The notes: a model not told the origin generated them from the sequence alone. A stretch of DNA of 64,000 bases from Gammaproteobacteria bacterium (GCA_028817405.1 JAPPPS010000121.1:9139-73138), one strand, 5' to 3'; counted from the first letter of the stretch, positions 10,444 through 58,591 are shown. Translations and numbers: made by a program.

Positions 10444-11358
10444 TCACGATGATTGCGCGGCGATGACCGCCAGGCCGCGCAACACCAAGTCCGGCGCGCA
10501 CTCCGCGCCGGCGCTCAGCAACTGCGCGAGGCGGCCGGCGTCGCCGCCGGTGACGATGACGGTGCATTCGCTTTGCAACGCCGCCAGTTGCGCCGCGACC
10601 GCGCGCTCGACTCCGCCGGCGAGCGCCAACCACGCGCCGCCGGCCACCGCCGCTTGGGTGTCGGTGGCGAGGGCGGTGGCGAGGGTTGCGGCGACGGTGG
10701 GGGCGACTTCCGTGGCATCGGCGACATCAGCGGCAGCGGGGCCAGGCGCGGCGCAGTCGTTTTCGCCGGCACCGTCACCGGCACCGGCACCAGCACTGTC
10801 ACTGTCACCGTCGTCACCGGGGCCGCCGAGGTTTGCGGTTTGGCGGCGCAGTGCCTCGCGCATGGCGCGCGCGCCGGGCAGGATGATGCCGCCGCGGAAC
10901 ACGCCGCCGGCGTCCAGCGCGTCCACCGTCACCGCGCTGCCGGCGTCGACCACGATGACCGCGCGGCGCGGGAACATGCGGCGCGCGCCCACTAACGCGG
11001 CCCACCGATCGCCGCCCAAGCGCGCCGGTTGCGGGTAGGAATTGACCACGCCGGCTTGGCGCGCCGGCGATGCGATGAACGCCGGTTGCAAGTTCCAAAC
11101 GCGGCCGGCGACCGCGGCGATGATTTTCTCAACCGCCGGCCCGGCCACGCACGATGCCCACACCGCGGCCGGCTCCAGCCCGGCCCACGCCGCGGTCAAT
11201 GCGGCGTGCAATTCCGCCGGCGAGTTGCGCTCGATGGCGACCGCATCGCCGATGTCGAGGCCGGAGTCGGGGGCGGAGTCGCGGTTGGTGTCGCGGCCGG
11301 CGGCGCGGGTGACCGCCCATTTCAGTCGATGGTTGCCGGCGTCGATTAACAGTTTCAT
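10444..11358 (-). CDS. coaX: type III pantothenate kinase
   Basis: Part of ORF 10444-11547. The start ATG at 11356-11358 (MKLLIDAGNHRLKW) overlaps the birA stop (ATGA). The gene contains a Gly/Asp/Ala-rich insert of about 45 aa. Confidence 0.8.
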   Translation of the reverse strand: MKLLIDAGNHRLKWAVTRAAGRDTNRDSAPDSGLDIGDAVAIERNSPAELHAALTAAWAGLEPAAVWASCVAGPAVEKIIAAVAGRVWNLQPAFIASPARQAGVVNSYPQPARLGGDRWAALVGARRMFPRRAVIVVDAGSAVTVDALDAGGVFRGGIILPGARAMREALRRQTANLGGPGDDGDSDSAGAGAGDGAGENDCAAPGPAAADVADATEVAPTVAATLATALATDTQAAVAGGAWLALAGGVERAVAAQLAALQSECTVIVTGGDAGRLAQLLSAGAECAPDLVLRGLAVIAAQSS

Positions 11359-40293: not shown

Positions 40294-43125
40294 TTAAAAC
40301 TTCTTCCCAAACCGCAGCCACACCAATCTTTGCGTGGGCGCGTCGGGGTTGTGGCCGGGGTGGCGGGTGAGTTGTACGCCGAGCGATAAGTCGCCGCCGG
40401 CGATGGTGGATGGGGGGGCGCGCCAGGCGATTTCGGCTTCCAGGGCGCGGGCGCGCGGTTGCAGGTCGACCGCGATGTCGTCGTAGCGCACCACGCCGTA
40501 GCGGCTGCGCGCGGTGGCGAGGCGCAGTTGCGCGCGGCCGGATTCGGCGCGCAGCGGCTGGCTCAACCGCAAGCCCAACCAGTCGCCGCGGCGCAGCGCC
40601 GAGGCGCGCGCCAGGCCTAAGCTGAACGCCGAACTGCGCAAGCCGGACACGCCGCGCAGGATGCCCGGCGCGCGGTCCGGCCCGGTGCGGGTTTGCCCGA
40701 CATAACCCGCGGCCTGCGCGCGCCAGTGGCGGCCGGCGCGCCACGCCAAGCCCGCGCCGGCGAACAGCGTCTCGCCGCGCGCCGCGCCGACCGCGCCGCG
40801 GCCGCGCGCGCCGAGGAAGCCCTCGGCCTCGCGCACCAGCCCGGCCTGCAGGCGCAACGCGCCGCGGCCGGAGGCGTAAGCGTGCGGAGCGAAGTTGAAC
40901 GCCACCGCGCTGCCGCGCCGCCAGTCGTCCGCGCCGCCGTCGGCAACCGCCGCGCCGCGCATCACCGCCAGGCCGAATCGCCCGCGGCCCGCGGCCGCGG
41001 AAAACCCGCCGCCGAAGCCGTGCCGCACCAGCGAAAAATACGGCGCGGCGAACGCATGCGGCGCGAGGAAGGCCGGCGCGGCAACGCCATCGCCATCGCC
41101 AAAACCGCCGCCGCCGAGCCCGTGCCGGCCGCCGCCGAATCCGCCGCCGGCAAAACCGGCGCGGCCCGCGCGCACCGTGCCATCGTCGCCAAATCCATCA
41201 CCGTCGCCGAAATCGCCGAAAACCCCGAATCCGCCGTCCAACCCCGCCCCGCTGTTGTATTTTGGCGCGAACCACCACCGCCGCCCCTGGCCGTCCCCCG
41301 CGCGCAGCAGCATCGCATCGGCGGTCGCGGCCGCCTCCGCCGCCGCCAATTCCGCGCCGGCCGCGGCCGGCGCGGGCGCGTGTACCAATTGGTCCGCGGT
41401 GAAGAAAAACGGCGAATCGAGCGCATCGAACAACACCAGCGGCGTATCGCGCAACGCGTGCGACACGGCGTCGCCAAACGCGCCGCGGGGAATCTCCAAC
41501 GCGGTCGATTCTGCCGCCACCCGCCGGCCGTCCGCGGTCGATGCCATCAGCATCCCCGCCGGCCGCGTGGCCGCGTCCAGGTCGAGCAGGCCGTGGCCGT
41601 AGGTGTCGGAGTCGGCGTAGATGCCGGTGCGGTCGGCGGTGGCCAAAAGCCGAGTTACCAATTCCGTGTTGCCGAGGGCCGGCTCGCCGGCCATCGGGGA
41701 GCCGGGCGGATTGCGGAAGAATTGACGCATCACGGCGAGCGCGCCGGTGACCATCGGCGCGGCGAAGGATGTGCCTCCTTGGACCTGGAAACGGCTTTCG
41801 CAGGATAAATCGCCGAGGGAACTGACGGAGCAATCGCCGCGCCGCGCCACCCACATAGTGCCGCCGGGCGCGGCCAAGCAGAATCCTTTGGCGGTGCCGC
41901 AACGGTTGGAAAAACTGGCGATGCTCCCTTGCTGGTCCACCGCGACCACGGCAAGCACATGACCTTGCAACTCCGGGAAATGCACGCCGAGGGCGGTTTC
42001 CAGGGTCGGCGAAGTGGCGTCAATCGCTCCGCCCGCTTCAAATTCGCCGGGGTCCAGTCGACCGTTGCCGTTTCGGTCGATGTCGTATCGGTCGCCATAT
42101 TCATTGCCGGCTGACCACACGATGATGGTGCGGTCAGCGGCGTCACGGTGGGCTTGTGCGAACAGCGCGGCGGTGCGGTCGCGGTTGGCGCGCACATCGG
42201 CGCGGGTGTAGGAGTCGACACCGTGGGGGCGGCCAAAACTGAAGTTGATGACGAATCCCCACGGGTTGTTGCGGTCGTAGCCGCTGCCGCCGGCGTTGGG
42301 GCGGTAGATGAGGCGTTCATAAAACTCGACGTTGTCGTCGTCGCCTTGGTCGGTGAGGTCGCGCGGGCCGGTGTTCGGCACAGTGCCGCCGCCGGCGCCC
42401 AAGCGCACGCGCAGGCCGATGATGTTGGCGTCAAAGGCGACGCCGCTGGTGGTGGTGTCGCCGTTGCCGCGGCGACCGGCGGCGATGGCCGCGGTGCCGG
42501 TACCGTGGTCGTCGCTGCAGGTGCGGCTGGCCAGTTCTTGCGGGGTGCATGGCGTGCCGAAAGTGGCGCCGAGGGTGAACTTGTCGGCGCGCCCGCCGAA
42601 CTCGCTATGCCCGATAAAAAAGCCGCTGTCGGCGAACACCACGGTCTCGCCGGCGCCGGTCGCACCGCGCGCCCAAGCGTGGGATGTGTGGACTAACGCG
42701 TGGCGACGGTCGCCGCCGACGATTCTCCGCATAGAATCACGGTAGTCCAAGTTGTATTCGGTCAACTCATACAACCGCCGGTTCGCCATGAACGCCGCGC
42801 TTTCCGTGGGGTGGGTGAAAGCGAACGGGTCGCCGGGGTCGGTGTCGACCGCGGTGCGGGGAAAGGGCGGCGGAGTAGGCGTCGGCGCGGGCGGGGGTGC
42901 CGGGGGAGGGGCCGGCGGCGGCATCGGTGCGGGCGGTGGTGCCGGTGGCGGCGCGGGCGGCGGTGTCGGGTCTGGCATGGTCCCCGGTACCGATGGCGTG
43001 GGCGGCGCGGGCGTGGCTGTCACTTCTTCATTATTCGTAGTCGCCGGCCCACCGCCCCCCCCGCCGCCGCCCCCGCCACAACCGGCGAGCAGCAAAACCG
43101 CGGCGATGGTCAGGAACAGCCTCAT
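40294..43125 (-). CDS. lipoprotein S8 (subtilisin-family) serine protease with C-terminal autotransporter-like beta-domain
   Basis: The start is ATG 43123-43125 and the lipobox is LLLAGC. A G10 run and a Pro/Ala linker follow. The catalytic triad blocks are VVFADSG, DDHGTGTA and GGTSFAAPMVTG. The C-terminus ends in LVWLRFGKKF, an OMP-type terminal Phe. Confidence 0.8.
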   Translation of the reverse strand: MRLFLTIAAVLLLAGCGGGGGGGGGGPATTNNEEVTATPAPPTPSVPGTMPDPTPPPAPPPAPPPAPMPPPAPPPAPPPAPTPTPPPFPRTAVDTDPGDPFAFTHPTESAAFMANRRLYELTEYNLDYRDSMRRIVGGDRRHALVHTSHAWARGATGAGETVVFADSGFFIGHSEFGGRADKFTLGATFGTPCTPQELASRTCSDDHGTGTAAIAAGRRGNGDTTTSGVAFDANIIGLRVRLGAGGGTVPNTGPRDLTDQGDDDNVEFYERLIYRPNAGGSGYDRNNPWGFVINFSFGRPHGVDSYTRADVRANRDRTAALFAQAHRDAADRTIIVWSAGNEYGDRYDIDRNGNGRLDPGEFEAGGAIDATSPTLETALGVHFPELQGHVLAVVAVDQQGSIASFSNRCGTAKGFCLAAPGGTMWVARRGDCSVSSLGDLSCESRFQVQGGTSFAAPMVTGALAVMRQFFRNPPGSPMAGEPALGNTELVTRLLATADRTGIYADSDTYGHGLLDLDAATRPAGMLMASTADGRRVAAESTALEIPRGAFGDAVSHALRDTPLVLFDALDSPFFFTADQLVHAPAPAAAGAELAAAEAAATADAMLLRAGDGQGRRWWFAPKYNSGAGLDGGFGVFGDFGDGDGFGDDGTVRAGRAGFAGGGFGGGRHGLGGGGFGDGDGVAAPAFLAPHAFAAPYFSLVRHGFGGGFSAAAGRGRFGLAVMRGAAVADGGADDWRRGSAVAFNFAPHAYASGRGALRLQAGLVREAEGFLGARGRGAVGAARGETLFAGAGLAWRAGRHWRAQAAGYVGQTRTGPDRAPGILRGVSGLRSSAFSLGLARASALRRGDWLGLRLSQPLRAESGRAQLRLATARSRYGVVRYDDIAVDLQPRARALEAEIAWRAPPSTIAGGDLSLGVQLTRHPGHNPDAPTQRLVWLRFGKKF
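43055..43062 (-). repeat. homopolymeric G8 (C8 on the top strand) inside the 5' coding region of the S8 autotransporter
   Basis: Read directly. It lies 16-23 nt downstream of the lipobox Cys codon (43078-43080). Confidence 0.9.
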
Positions 43126-43327: not shown

Positions 43328-43356
43328 TTGCATTCCCGATTTTCTTCCCCTATAAT
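43328..43356 (+). promoter_or_regulatory. sigma-70-type promoter upstream of the intron-containing tRNA-Thr
   Basis: TTGCAT (43328-43333), a 17-nt spacer and TATAAT (43351-43356). A T9 run lies just upstream (43318-43326), and a GC-rich discriminator (CCGCCGCCC) lies downstream. Confidence 0.6.
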
Positions 43357-43467
43357 CCGCCGCCCTGTTTTCCGTTGGCGTTGGCGCGCTTGTTGTGGGC
43401 GCGGTGGCGGGGCGGGGATGGGGGGCGCAAACCTTTGTAATTCAAGGCGATTTCGAATGTCCGACAG

Positions 43468-43821
43468 GCCCGCATAGCTCAGATGGGGAGAGCAACTGAT
43501 TTGTGAGTGATTGCACCTTCGCGGGGAAACCCGCGGAGTGGAGGTGGCTAAAACGGGGAAACCTGACCTGCACGGCCCGCGGCGCGCCAAGCGCGAGCGG
43601 CGCGGCCGGCGGATGGCAATCCCGTGCTACCCCGCCCGGCAGCGGCGCGGGGGAGTGTAGAGACTTTACACCACCCGCCTAACCCGTGCCGCGCGCGACA
43701 CCGCCCGCGGCCGGCACGGCGAAGAGAAAGTCCGGACCCCAAACCCCGCGCGCGGGGGCCGTGAAAACGGTGGCGGGTGCGAATCAGTAGGTCGTGGGTT
43801 CGAGTCCCTCTGCGGGCTCCA
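43468..43821 (+). tRNA. thrU: tRNA-Thr(UGU) interrupted by a 277-nt intron after anticodon position 36 (exons 43468-43504 and 43782-43821, CCA encoded)
   Basis: The joined exons give GCCCGCA-TA-GCTC-AGATGGGGA-GAGC-A-ACTGA-TTTGTAA-TCAGT-AGGTC-GTGGG-TTCGAGT-CCCTC-TGCGGGC-T-CCA. The anticodon arm is identical to that of tRNA-Thr(CGU) at 58516-58591 except for the first anticodon base. The T stem has one U-U mismatch. Confidence 0.85.
43505..43781 (+). ncRNA. group I intron (IC3-like, no internal ORF)
   Basis: The insert follows U36 and ends in G (43781). GCA (43513-43515) pairs with exon UGU (P1, G-U at the splice site). GAUU (43509-43512) pairs with the 3' exon AAUC (P10). A GAAA-capped hairpin spans 43517-43538. 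The blocks AUGGCAA (43613-43619), GUGUAGAGACU (43655-43665) and CACCCGCCUAA (43672-43682) resemble the Azoarcus tRNA-Ile intron as I remember it. Confidence 0.8.
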
Positions 43822-44013
43822 TTTGCGGCGGCGACGGTTCCGGGCAGCCGGGCGGCGAATGATGCGGTGGCGGGCGCGGCGAAGGCGGCGCACGCTGGAA
43901 TCGCCGGGGTCGCCGGGGTCGCCGAAATCGCCGGCGCGCCGAAATCGACGGTGTCGCCGCGCGCCGAAATCGCCGGGTCGCCGGCGCTCCGAAGTCGAGT
44001 TCATGCCGAATGT

Positions 44014-44042
44014 TTGACAGCAAACTGAAATGATGCGAAAAT
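44014..44042 (+). promoter_or_regulatory. possible second sigma-70-type promoter ahead of tRNA-Tyr
   Basis: TTGACA (44014-44019), a 17-nt spacer and GAAAAT (44037-44042). Confidence 0.4.
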
Positions 44043-44496: not shown

Positions 44497-45687
44497 ATGT
44501 CCAAAGCCAAATTTGAGCGAACCAAGCCGCATGTGAATGTGGGGACGATTGGTCATGTGGACCATGGCAAGACCACTTTGACGGCGGCCATGACGCGGGT
44601 GTTGTCGTCGAAGTTTGGCGGCGAGGTCAAGGCGTTTGACGAGATTGACAACGCCCCCGAGGAGCGCGAGCGCGGGATTACGATTGCGACGGCGCATGTC
44701 GAGTATGAGACCGCGGCGCGGCATTATGCGCATGTGGATTGTCCGGGCCACGCCGATTATGTGAAGAACATGATTACCGGCGCGGCGCAGATGGACGGCG
44801 CGATTTTGGTTGTCTCCGCGGCCGATGGTCCGATGCCGCAGACGCGCGAGCATATTTTGCTGGCGCGGCAGGTGGGGGTGCCGCACATGGTGGTGTATTT
44901 GAACAAAGCCGACATGGTGGACGACGCCGAGTTGCTGGAGTTGGTGGAGATGGAAGTGCGCGAGTTGCTGGACAAGTATGAGTTTCCCGGCGATGCGACG
45001 CCGATTATCACCGGCAGCGCGTTGAAGGCGTTGGAGGGCGATGCGTCCGACATGGGCGAGGGTTCCATCATCAAACTGGCCGAGGCGTTGGACAGTTATA
45101 TCCCCGAGCCGGAGCGCGCGGTGGACGGTGATTTCTTGATGCCGGTGGAGGATGTGTTTTCGATTTCCGGTCGCGGCACCGTGGTCACCGGCCGCATCGA
45201 GCGTGGCGTGGTGAAGGTGGGTGAGGAGTTGGCGGTGGTCGGCATTCGCCAGACCGACAACACGATTTGCACCGGCGTGGAGATGTTTCGCAAGTTGTTG
45301 GACGAGGGTCGGGCCGGCGACAATGTTGGGATTTTGTTGCGCGGCACCAAGCGCGACCAGGTGGAGCGCGGTCAGGTGTTGGCGAAGCCCGGCAGCATTA
45401 CGCCGCATACGAAGTTTGAGGCCGAGGTGTATATCCTCAACAAGGACGAGGGCGGTCGGCATACGCCGTTTTTCAATGGTTATCGGCCGCAGTTTTATTT
45501 TCGCACCACGGATGTCACCGGTGCGGTGGAGTTGCCGAAGTCGGTGGAGATGGTGATGCCCGGCGACAATGTGAGCATGTCGGCGGAGTTGATTGCGCCG
45601 ATTGCGATGGAGGACGGTTTGCGTTTTGCGATTCGCGAAGGCGGCCGCACCGTCGGCGCCGGCGTGGTTTCCAAAATCCTCGCGTGA
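44497..45687 (+). CDS. tuf: elongation factor Tu
   Basis: [31 protein letters not shown]...; full-length at 396 aa. Confidence 0.98.

Positions 45688-58515: not shown

Positions 58516-58591
<76 letters not shown>

Follow-up and report, generated by a model that had tools for sequence, protein, structure and literature searches.

The classical hosts among bacterial tRNA genes that carry group I introns are tRNA-Leu, tRNA-fMet, tRNA-Arg and tRNA-Ile. The catalogue of Williams (2020; bioRxiv 10.1101/2020.01.27.920355; tFind, gpI_bact_tRNA) distinguishes 21 settings, and Thr.5Ug, Thr.3Ug and Thr.2Ug are among the seeds of its alignment; a survey of 4,934 complete genomes lists Thr(GGU) introns between anticodon-loop positions 36 and 37 (36/37) (Nakagawa et al., 2026; PMC13011429). 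The present analysis concerns 64,000 nucleotides (nt) of DNA from a Gammaproteobacteria bacterium (GCA_028817405.1, JAPPPS010000121.1:9139-73138), a stretch referred to as the window and numbered from its first letter. Positions 43468-43821 are very probably a tRNA-Thr(UGU) gene in the thrU slot of a thrU-tyrU-glyT-thrT-tuf cluster, split at 36/37 by a 277-nt group I intron of the IC3 type that has no open reading frame (ORF). An initial annotation, made from the sequence alone, had proposed a group I intron at this very site, and the proposal is upheld by matches to a covariance model and hidden Markov models (HMMs), a P1-P9 fold, covariation and homologous loci. Its further claim that Thr(UGU) lies outside the known hosts has to be given up, as threonine settings stand in Williams (2020) and the arrangement is found in at least 20 genomes and on 24 metagenome contigs. 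An explicit naming of Thr(UGU) 36/37 could not be established from the accessible parts of the literature, in which the readable Thr.5Ug seed has a GGU anticodon. The window intron is a new, rather divergent member of an already catalogued intron type.

The split gene and its intron compared with described introns

A 37-nt 5' half and a 3' half, which make up 77 nt when joined, are separated by an insert of 277 nt; the initially proposed coordinates of the halves and the size of the insert were reproduced when the sequence was read again. In agreement with the cloverleaf that had been claimed, ARAGORN recognises the joined exons as tRNA-Thr(tgt), and the cloverleaf is normal, with the pairs G1-C72 and C2-G71, a 7-nt loop UUUGUAA and an encoded CCA; annotated tRNA-Thr genes are the top Escherichia coli matches of the joined 77 nt. 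The anticodon arm had also been said to match that of a tRNA-Thr(CGU) at 58516-58591; the two arms indeed differ at nt 34 alone, and the second gene lies on the minus strand, which had gone unmentioned. Among the matches listed, the 5' exon is nearly the same in 14 related genomes. The split gene is found neither by default ARAGORN nor by the Rfam tRNA model in the uncut window. Exons and intron are laid out as follows.

43468..43504, plus strand: 5' exon of tRNA-Thr(UGU), with the acceptor 5' strand, D arm, anticodon-stem 5' strand and loop nt 32-36 (UUUGU), U36 being last
43505..43781, plus strand: group I (IC3-type) intron, 277 nt, without ORF, between anticodon-loop positions 36 and 37
43502..43515, plus strand: P1, exon U34-G35-U36 (43502-43504) with the guide GCA (43513-43515) and a U36.G43513 wobble at the 5' splice site
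43509..43512, plus strand: candidate P10 strand GAUU, able to pair with AAUC of the 3' exon (43782-43785)
43517..43538, plus strand: P2 hairpin of 9 base pairs (bp) with a GAAA tetraloop at 43526-43529
43543..43547, plus strand: P3 5' strand GGUGG, paired with CCACC at 43671-43675
43553..43625, plus strand: P4, 43553-43558 with 43620-43625, enclosing J4/5, the P5 base and the P5 extension
43562-43563 with 43615-43616, plus strand: P5 base, carrying a long GC-rich extension hairpin
43626..43656, plus strand: P6 (GCU 43626-43628 with AGU 43654-43656) and the P6a extension hairpin
43657..43675, plus strand: J6/7, P7 5' strand, J7/3 and P3 3' strand, core string GUGUAGAGACUUUACACCACC
G43660 and GACUUU 43662-43667 with 43727-43733, plus strand: P7, with A43661 bulged
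43676..43721, plus strand: P8, CGCC 43676-43679 with GGCG 43718-43721, with an extended inner hairpin
43722..43733, plus strand: J8/7 (AAGAG) and P7 3' strand, AAAGUC 43727-43732 plus C43733
43734..43780, plus strand: 3' domain, P9 43736-43739 with 43775-43778, P9a 43744-43757 and P9b 43758-43771 (from the fold)
43763-43766, plus strand: P9b loop GAAA (from the fold)
43781, plus strand: omega G, the final intron nucleotide, a G kept in all relatives
43782..43821, plus strand: 3' exon, with A37, A38, the anticodon-stem 3' strand, variable loop, T arm, acceptor 3' strand, discriminator U and CCA

All helices from P1 to P9 can be drawn with standard pairs. The group I hallmarks named in the initial annotation were found where it had placed them: a U ends the 5' exon (43504) and a G the intron (43781), the guide GCA pairs with UGU so that a U.G stands at the splice site, and the GAAA-capped hairpin is a clean 9-bp P2. 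By homology to the Azoarcus intron, G43662-C43732 is the expected guanosine-binding pair.

Membership in subgroup IC3 is supported by alignment and helix inventory. The intron aligns end to end with the Azoarcus, Leu, Arg and Thr seeds, which are given as IC3 in the literature (Williams, 2020); identity to the five published seeds compared is 72-77% and none of them stands out. P2 is present, P5 is simple and lacks P5abc, P7.1/P7.2 is absent, and the J6/7-P7-J7/3-P3'-P8 string resembles that of Azoarcus and Anabaena.

The Rba53.Thr.5Ug seed (Williams, 2020) is like the window intron in its Thr host, its insertion at 36/37 (after loop nt 5), its U-1 and its omega G. Both have an IC3-type core and a P9/P9a/P9b 3' domain and are 75% identical over the aligned columns, but the seed follows an exon ending in ...GGU/ in a Thr(GGU) tRNA and has the P3 CCGCUC/GGGCGG, whereas the window has Thr(UGU), the guide GCA and the P3 GGUGG/CCACC. 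The intron of Azoarcus sp. BH72 tRNA-Ile(CAU) (Ile2.5Ug), to which the locus had originally been likened, also sits at 36/37 and uses a 3-bp P1 with a U.G. This likeness is confirmed for the catalytic core, with 76% identity over 191 aligned columns (the Azoarcus sequence being that of Williams's seed alignment), and the covariance model R1 described below matches both introns; it fails for the 3' domain, which is of another type in the window. The J6/7-P7 string GUGUAGAGACU is identical in the two, and CACCCNCCUAA, AUGGCAA and the GAAA of L2 are nearly so. The Azoarcus type measures 205 nt and has a single short P9 hairpin and a canonical CCUAAG/UAUGG receptor in P5, whereas the 277-nt window intron combines a P9/P9a/P9b three-way junction with P5, P6 and P8 helices that carry long GC-rich extensions. 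Differences between them in P3, P4, P6 and P7 are compensatory, and the Rfam model RF00028 detects Azoarcus-type introns at 50-59 bits but not the window intron.

The 3' domain of the window intron, a P9/P9a/P9b junction with a GCNGNGAAANCNGU hairpin, is built as in Leu, Arg, Lys and other Thr tRNA introns. The IC3 introns of cyanobacterial tRNA-Leu(UAA) (Leu.3Ug) and Agrobacterium tRNA-Arg(CCU) (Arg.5Ug) share with it the J8/7-P7 string GAAGAGAAAGUCC and the layout of this domain, in which ACC.C AAA is followed by a hairpin, GCNGCGAAAGCNGU and then GGU..G. With 77% identity, the Ncf2.Leu.3Ug seed gives the best alignment score of the five seeds. The Leu and Arg introns differ in host tRNA and guide, the Leu site being 34/35, and the peripheral hairpins of the window intron are much longer. 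Introns of Rhodobacterales tRNA-Thr(UGU) genes (Ruegeria, Paracoccus, Roseovarius and Salipiger; loci L019, L062, L085, L091, L092 and L114) have the host tRNA, anticodon, 36/37 site and 3' domain type of the window intron, but a long extended P1 loop, a common P3 GGUGUC/GGCACC and R1 scores of 157-173 bits against 68.5 for the window; they form a separate lineage of the family.

Homologous loci, covariation and the splice boundaries

Relatives were collected by scanning species-representative genomes with a 28-nt pattern from the window core, in which positions that differ in Azoarcus were left free, and intron boundaries were refined by an exhaustive U-1/omega-G, 7-nt-loop and ARAGORN search. 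The pattern occurs in at least 119 stretches. Among the matches listed, nearly all sit inside a split tRNA gene, the hosts being tRNA(CAU) in 58 cases, Thr(UGU) in 20, Leu(UAA) in 8, Leu(CAA) in 7 and Lys in 7, and the core string GUGUAGAGACUUUACACCACC is the same or nearly so in more than 119 tRNA introns among these matches. Thr(UGU) introns at 36/37 are present in at least 20 species-representative genomes, comprising the six Rhodobacterales loci and 14 gammaproteobacterial ones from Arenicellales, Ca. Poriferihabitaceae, Ca. Spongiihabitans, unclassified metagenome-assembled genomes (MAGs) and one MAG labelled Parasphingorhabdus. The gammaproteobacterial group has exons almost as in the window and tRNA-Tyr as the next gene; the nearest loci among the matches listed belong to Ca. 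Spongiihabitans and Arenicellales MAGs and reach 73-83% identity over the tuf region. A clade-specific P3-P4 string was found on 24 metagenome contigs, in 24/24 with the ...CTGATTTGT of a Thr tRNA 5' half immediately before it, and the closest of these contigs is 73.6% identical over tRNA and intron. This yields a clade of 15 genomic members (among the matches listed) and 24 metagenomic ones, all at one Thr(UGU) site, which in the sequences compared is confined to Thr(UGU) genes of Arenicellales-like and sponge-associated Gammaproteobacteria.

For an independent measure of homology, 50 non-Thr tRNA introns were aligned and the nested helices P2, P3, P4, P5, P6 and P8 supplied, from which the covariance model R1 was built. 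R1 has one match in the 64 kb, at 43496-43789, which covers all 242 model positions (68.5 bits, E=5.6e-18). The other 20 Thr(UGU) introns, all absent from its training set, are matched by it too. An HMM made from five seed introns published by Williams (Leu.3Ug, Arg.5Ug, Ile2.5Ug, Thr.5Ug and Thr.3Ug) has its sole match at 43510-43771 (E=1e-10). The intron is matched far beyond chance.

Pairing was counted in a model-based alignment of 71 introns over seven core helices, P7 being included as a pseudoknot. Standard pairs fill 93.4% of the cells, compared with 30-50% once the 3' partners have been slid 1-3 columns along, and 13/33 pairs have changes on both sides; the covariation score of 0.278 compares with at most 0.065 in the slid controls and was reached by 0/500 shuffles. 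Covariation is strong from P2 to P8 across the 71 introns. P2 has compensatory changes at 6/9 pairs in the window's clade and at 5/5 modelled pairs over the 71 introns. In P3 the window's clade has G-C where the other 56 introns have U.G, both sides having changed, and the outer pair of P4 is A-U in the clade and U-A elsewhere. P5 contains a pair that occurs as CG, GC or UA; the third pair of P6 is CG in 35, GC in 20 and UA in 16 introns and has changed from C-G to U-A in the window's clade; the P7 pair 43666/43728 covaries (UA in 49, AU in 21), and the second pair of P8 is GC, GU or AU. Within the 15-member clade the core is invariant and the exons are nearly identical. Covariation is seen in P2, in the second P8 pair and in P9b (CG/UA and UA/CG in the last), and the peripheral hairpins differ freely from member to member, in sequence as in length. 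Invariant core and exons are consistent with a functional tRNA gene that would depend on splicing.

The whole region has a better fold than 200/200 dinucleotide-preserving shuffles (z=-3.06). These results bear directly on the idea that there is no intron and that the two tRNA-like halves lie on either side of some unrelated GC-rich sequence, for instance a repeat element or the scar of a recombination. The insert has no Rfam family match, and the region is so GC-rich that it would fold stably unaided. Against this idea stand the independent covariance-model and HMM matches, the covariation of group I helices, and the same insert at the same nucleotide of the Thr(UGU) gene, a setting shared by at least 44 further public sequences. 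It is refuted by homology and covariation, and we attach next to no probability to it.

The position of the boundaries is decided by P1. The guide covaries with the exon over five host classes (CAU/GUG, CUU/GAG, UCU/GGA, UUU/GAA and UGU/GCA) and no aligned intron lacks U-1.G; therefore the 5' splice site lies after U36 and the alternative boundaries given by ARAGORN are excluded. In its intron mode (-i), ARAGORN found the split gene but misplaced the intron and called His(gtg), and the boundary search and the P1 rule were used in its stead. A real intron with shifted boundaries and a mature tRNA of another identity could also be argued from several other U-1/omega-G pairs that give foldable tRNAs with Ala, Arg or Asp loops, and the same ambiguity has been documented for Asn versus Thr(UGU) in PMC13011429. 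However, only 43504/43781 gives a GCA-guided P1 with U.G at the splice site, a rule without exception among the aligned introns of all host classes; the tRNA body is of the Thr kind, as is the anticodon arm, which has one difference from that of Thr(CGU), the best E. coli matches are tRNA-Thr genes, and the gene order is thrU-tyrU-glyT-thrT-tuf. A shift of this kind is thus very improbable, and the boundaries of the split tRNA-Thr(UGU) gene are taken as listed above.

Proposed splicing, contrary evidence and significance

The course of splicing is proposed by homology to the experimentally characterised tRNA introns of Azoarcus, Anabaena and Agrobacterium. A precursor would be transcribed together with the other tRNAs or just upstream of them, and the intron would fold into a P3-P8 core with a P3/P7 pseudoknot and a P4-P6 domain. 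The guide GCA (43513-43515) would form the 3-bp P1 with the anticodon UGU and so bring the U36.G wobble to the 5' splice site. The attack after U43504 would come from free guanosine held at the P7 G-C pair 43662/43732. Omega G43781 would then take over the guanosine site, and the 3'-OH of U36 would attack the 43781/43782 bond. Exon ligation would produce the 77-nt tRNA with the anticodon loop UUUGUAA and the expected junction ...ACUGAUUUGU/AAUCAGU... (also written ...GAGCAACUGAUUUGU/AAUCAGUAGGUCG...). The GAAA loops of P2 and P9b probably form tertiary clamps, contacts suggested by the analogy to Azoarcus, and the long GC-rich extensions of P5, P6, P8 and P9a are peripheral.

Several observations weigh against the reading as a spliced group I intron. 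A match to RF00028 (Intron_gpI), which the initial annotation had put forward as a check, did not appear, neither in the window at the gathering score nor at E<=10 on the 501-nt slice 43400-43900. Read literally, its absence supplies one half of the refuting condition that the initial annotation had set. The model was calibrated on twelve related loci, where it misses 8/8 Thr(UGU) introns tested and gives, against a gathering score of 50, 59.1 and 50.5 bits to two Azoarcus-type tRNA(CAU) introns and 63.2 bits to one Leu(UAA) intron; among R1's 50 training introns, the three checked (one Leu(UAA), two CAU) pass it. Since RF00028 misses the whole Thr(UGU) clade, its negative is invalid as a refutation here: it is a sensitivity limit and no evidence of absence. 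The failure is ascribed to the long GC-rich peripheral extensions of P5, P6, P8 and P9a. According to two published sources, the RF00028 seeds include no bacterial intron (Williams, 2020) and Thr introns of Patescibacteria at 36/37 escape the model (Nakagawa et al., 2026). The R1 score is in turn partly circular, as its training loci were fetched with the 28-nt core pattern from the window. Because the loci had come via that shared string, the test was repeated without it, and HMMs of the 5' domain (43510-43629, E=2.2e-6) and of the 3' domain (43713-43778, E=3.4e-8) still match; together with the published-seed HMM, they mitigate the circularity.

Further points of this kind concern the structure and the role of the gene. 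The sixth pair of P3 is a C x A mismatch throughout the window's clade. P10 is weakly conserved: in the 15-member clade its UU/AA part is kept in 15/15, but the A-U pair in 13/15 and the G-C pair in 5/15. The GAUU/AAUC pairing claimed at the outset is possible in the window; the 14 closest relatives retain only 2-3 of the 4 pairs, and P10 is a weakly supported part of the mechanism. We infer self-splicing of the window intron from analogy to its characterised homologues, and the split gene may be the sole ACA-decoding tRNA gene of the genome, of which the window covers 64 kb.

The mismatch in P3, the indirect case for splicing and the 64-kb view of the genome would also suit a splicing-dead relic, in which the intron has inactivated the tRNA-Thr(UGU) gene and another copy supplies the tRNA. 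The window member is, moreover, the most divergent and most GC-rich of its clade and has the second-lowest R1 score in it (68.5 bits). A relic would hardly be expected, however, to share all its core helices and junctions unchanged with 14 relatives that belong to different genera, or to have intact exons that are nearly identical across the clade, and U-1.G and omega G both kept; the variation that exists is compensatory or lies in peripheral loops, as selection for a working ribozyme would lead one to expect. No second Thr(UGU) gene was found in the 64-kb window by ARAGORN or the Rfam tRNA model, and the gene stands in the conserved thrU slot. Inactivation of the gene is accordingly regarded as improbable, and a functional tRNA-Thr(UGU) gene split by a working intron as the preferred reading.

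A broader picture is possible, though we stop short of calling it probable: the loci may represent an IC3 clade that is not yet explicitly described, fixed at 36/37 of a possibly sole tRNA-Thr(UGU) in Arenicellales-like, largely sponge-associated Gammaproteobacteria, apparently inherited vertically and without a homing endonuclease, and unseen by RF00028, default ARAGORN and probably tRNAscan-based annotation. If so, genomes of the clade look devoid of an ACA decoder, and ACA decoding would depend on ribozyme activity. As default ARAGORN and the Rfam tRNA and group I models miss the locus, genomes of this lineage would be annotated without tRNA-Thr(UGU), which would distort completeness and codon-usage analyses; the value of the observation is mainly practical. 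A well-populated and strongly conserved clade (at least 15 genomes and 24 metagenome contigs) joins the growing list of IC3 tRNA hosts and offers a natural ribozyme series in which an invariant core is combined with very different peripheral extensions. The current picture of bacterial tRNA introns is left unchanged.

Other carriers of the core and the gene neighbourhood

Some of the loci collected with the core pattern deserve mention in their own right. The clade member of Ca. Spongiihabitans at L002:1094-1516 (NZ_OZ252047.1) is 407 nt long and has tandem units of ~15 nt (CATGTTGATRACGRC) in its P8 extension, so that peripheral loops of clade introns can evidently take up repeat expansions. 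In Gammaproteobacteria the IC3 core is also found in tRNA-Leu(UAA) at 34/35 (L003, L018, L039, L050, L084, L106, L109 and L117), adjoining tRNA-Cys in 4/8 loci. Thalassobaculaceae and other Alphaproteobacteria carry it in tRNA-Leu(CAA) at 33/34 (L009, L013, L016, L072, L081, L088 and L112), and Alphaproteobacteria and Chloroflexota in tRNA-Lys(UUU/CUU) (L030, L036, L038, L053, L058, L063 and L082), where some intron boundaries are ambiguous by one nucleotide. The Leu(UAA), Leu(CAA) and Lys settings match categories in Williams (2020). An Azoarcus-type tRNA(CAU) intron of a Rhodocyclaceae MAG (L118:5908-6163) has a P1-loop insertion of ~36 nt (TCGCAGGGCACGACGCAATCCATTGCAAATGCCC...), the sole case among 28.

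Sixteen contigs classed as viral in IMG/VR (L120-L135) contain the core pattern, and the typeable ones are tRNA(CAU) in 11 cases and Leu(UAA) in 2. They may be prophage ends integrated beside tRNA genes rather than phage-borne introns. No Thr(UGU) intron was seen among the typeable carriers of the pattern on these viral contigs, and there is therefore no sign of a phage vector for the Thr(UGU) clade.

ARAGORN additionally calls a tRNA-Ala(ggc) of 92 nt at 11022-11113 and a tRNA-Asp(gtc) of 96 nt at 42298-42393 in the window, both with the anticodon at position 37. The Rfam tRNA model has no match at either place, and the Asp(gtc) call falls within a minus-strand ORF for a 968-amino-acid subtilase (Peptidase_S8); both calls are probably false positives.

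The thrU slot ahead of tyrU-glyT-thrT-tuf is as initially described: the genes that follow the split one are Tyr(gta) (44087), Gly(tcc) (44214), Thr(ggt) (44327) and EF-Tu (44497-45687). Upstream of it, a candidate promoter was noticed by eye.

43328..43356, plus strand: candidate sigma-70 promoter for the split tRNA gene, TTGCAT, 17-nt spacer, TATAAT, ~110 nt upstream of the tRNA

Transcription may start from this element. A consensus scan did not list it because the -35 hexamer fits at only 3/6 bases. The 265-nt spacer between the split tRNA-Thr gene and tRNA-Tyr contains degenerate GC-rich tandem repeats at 43893-43998 (periods 9, 17, 25 and 42; units that resemble TCGCCGGCGCGCCGAAATCGACGGG). 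Directly upstream of tRNA-Tyr, at 44014-44042, lies a promoter-like site, TTGACA-17-GAAAAT with a TG extension; transcription of the Tyr-Gly-Thr-tuf genes may thus be separate from that of the Thr gene.

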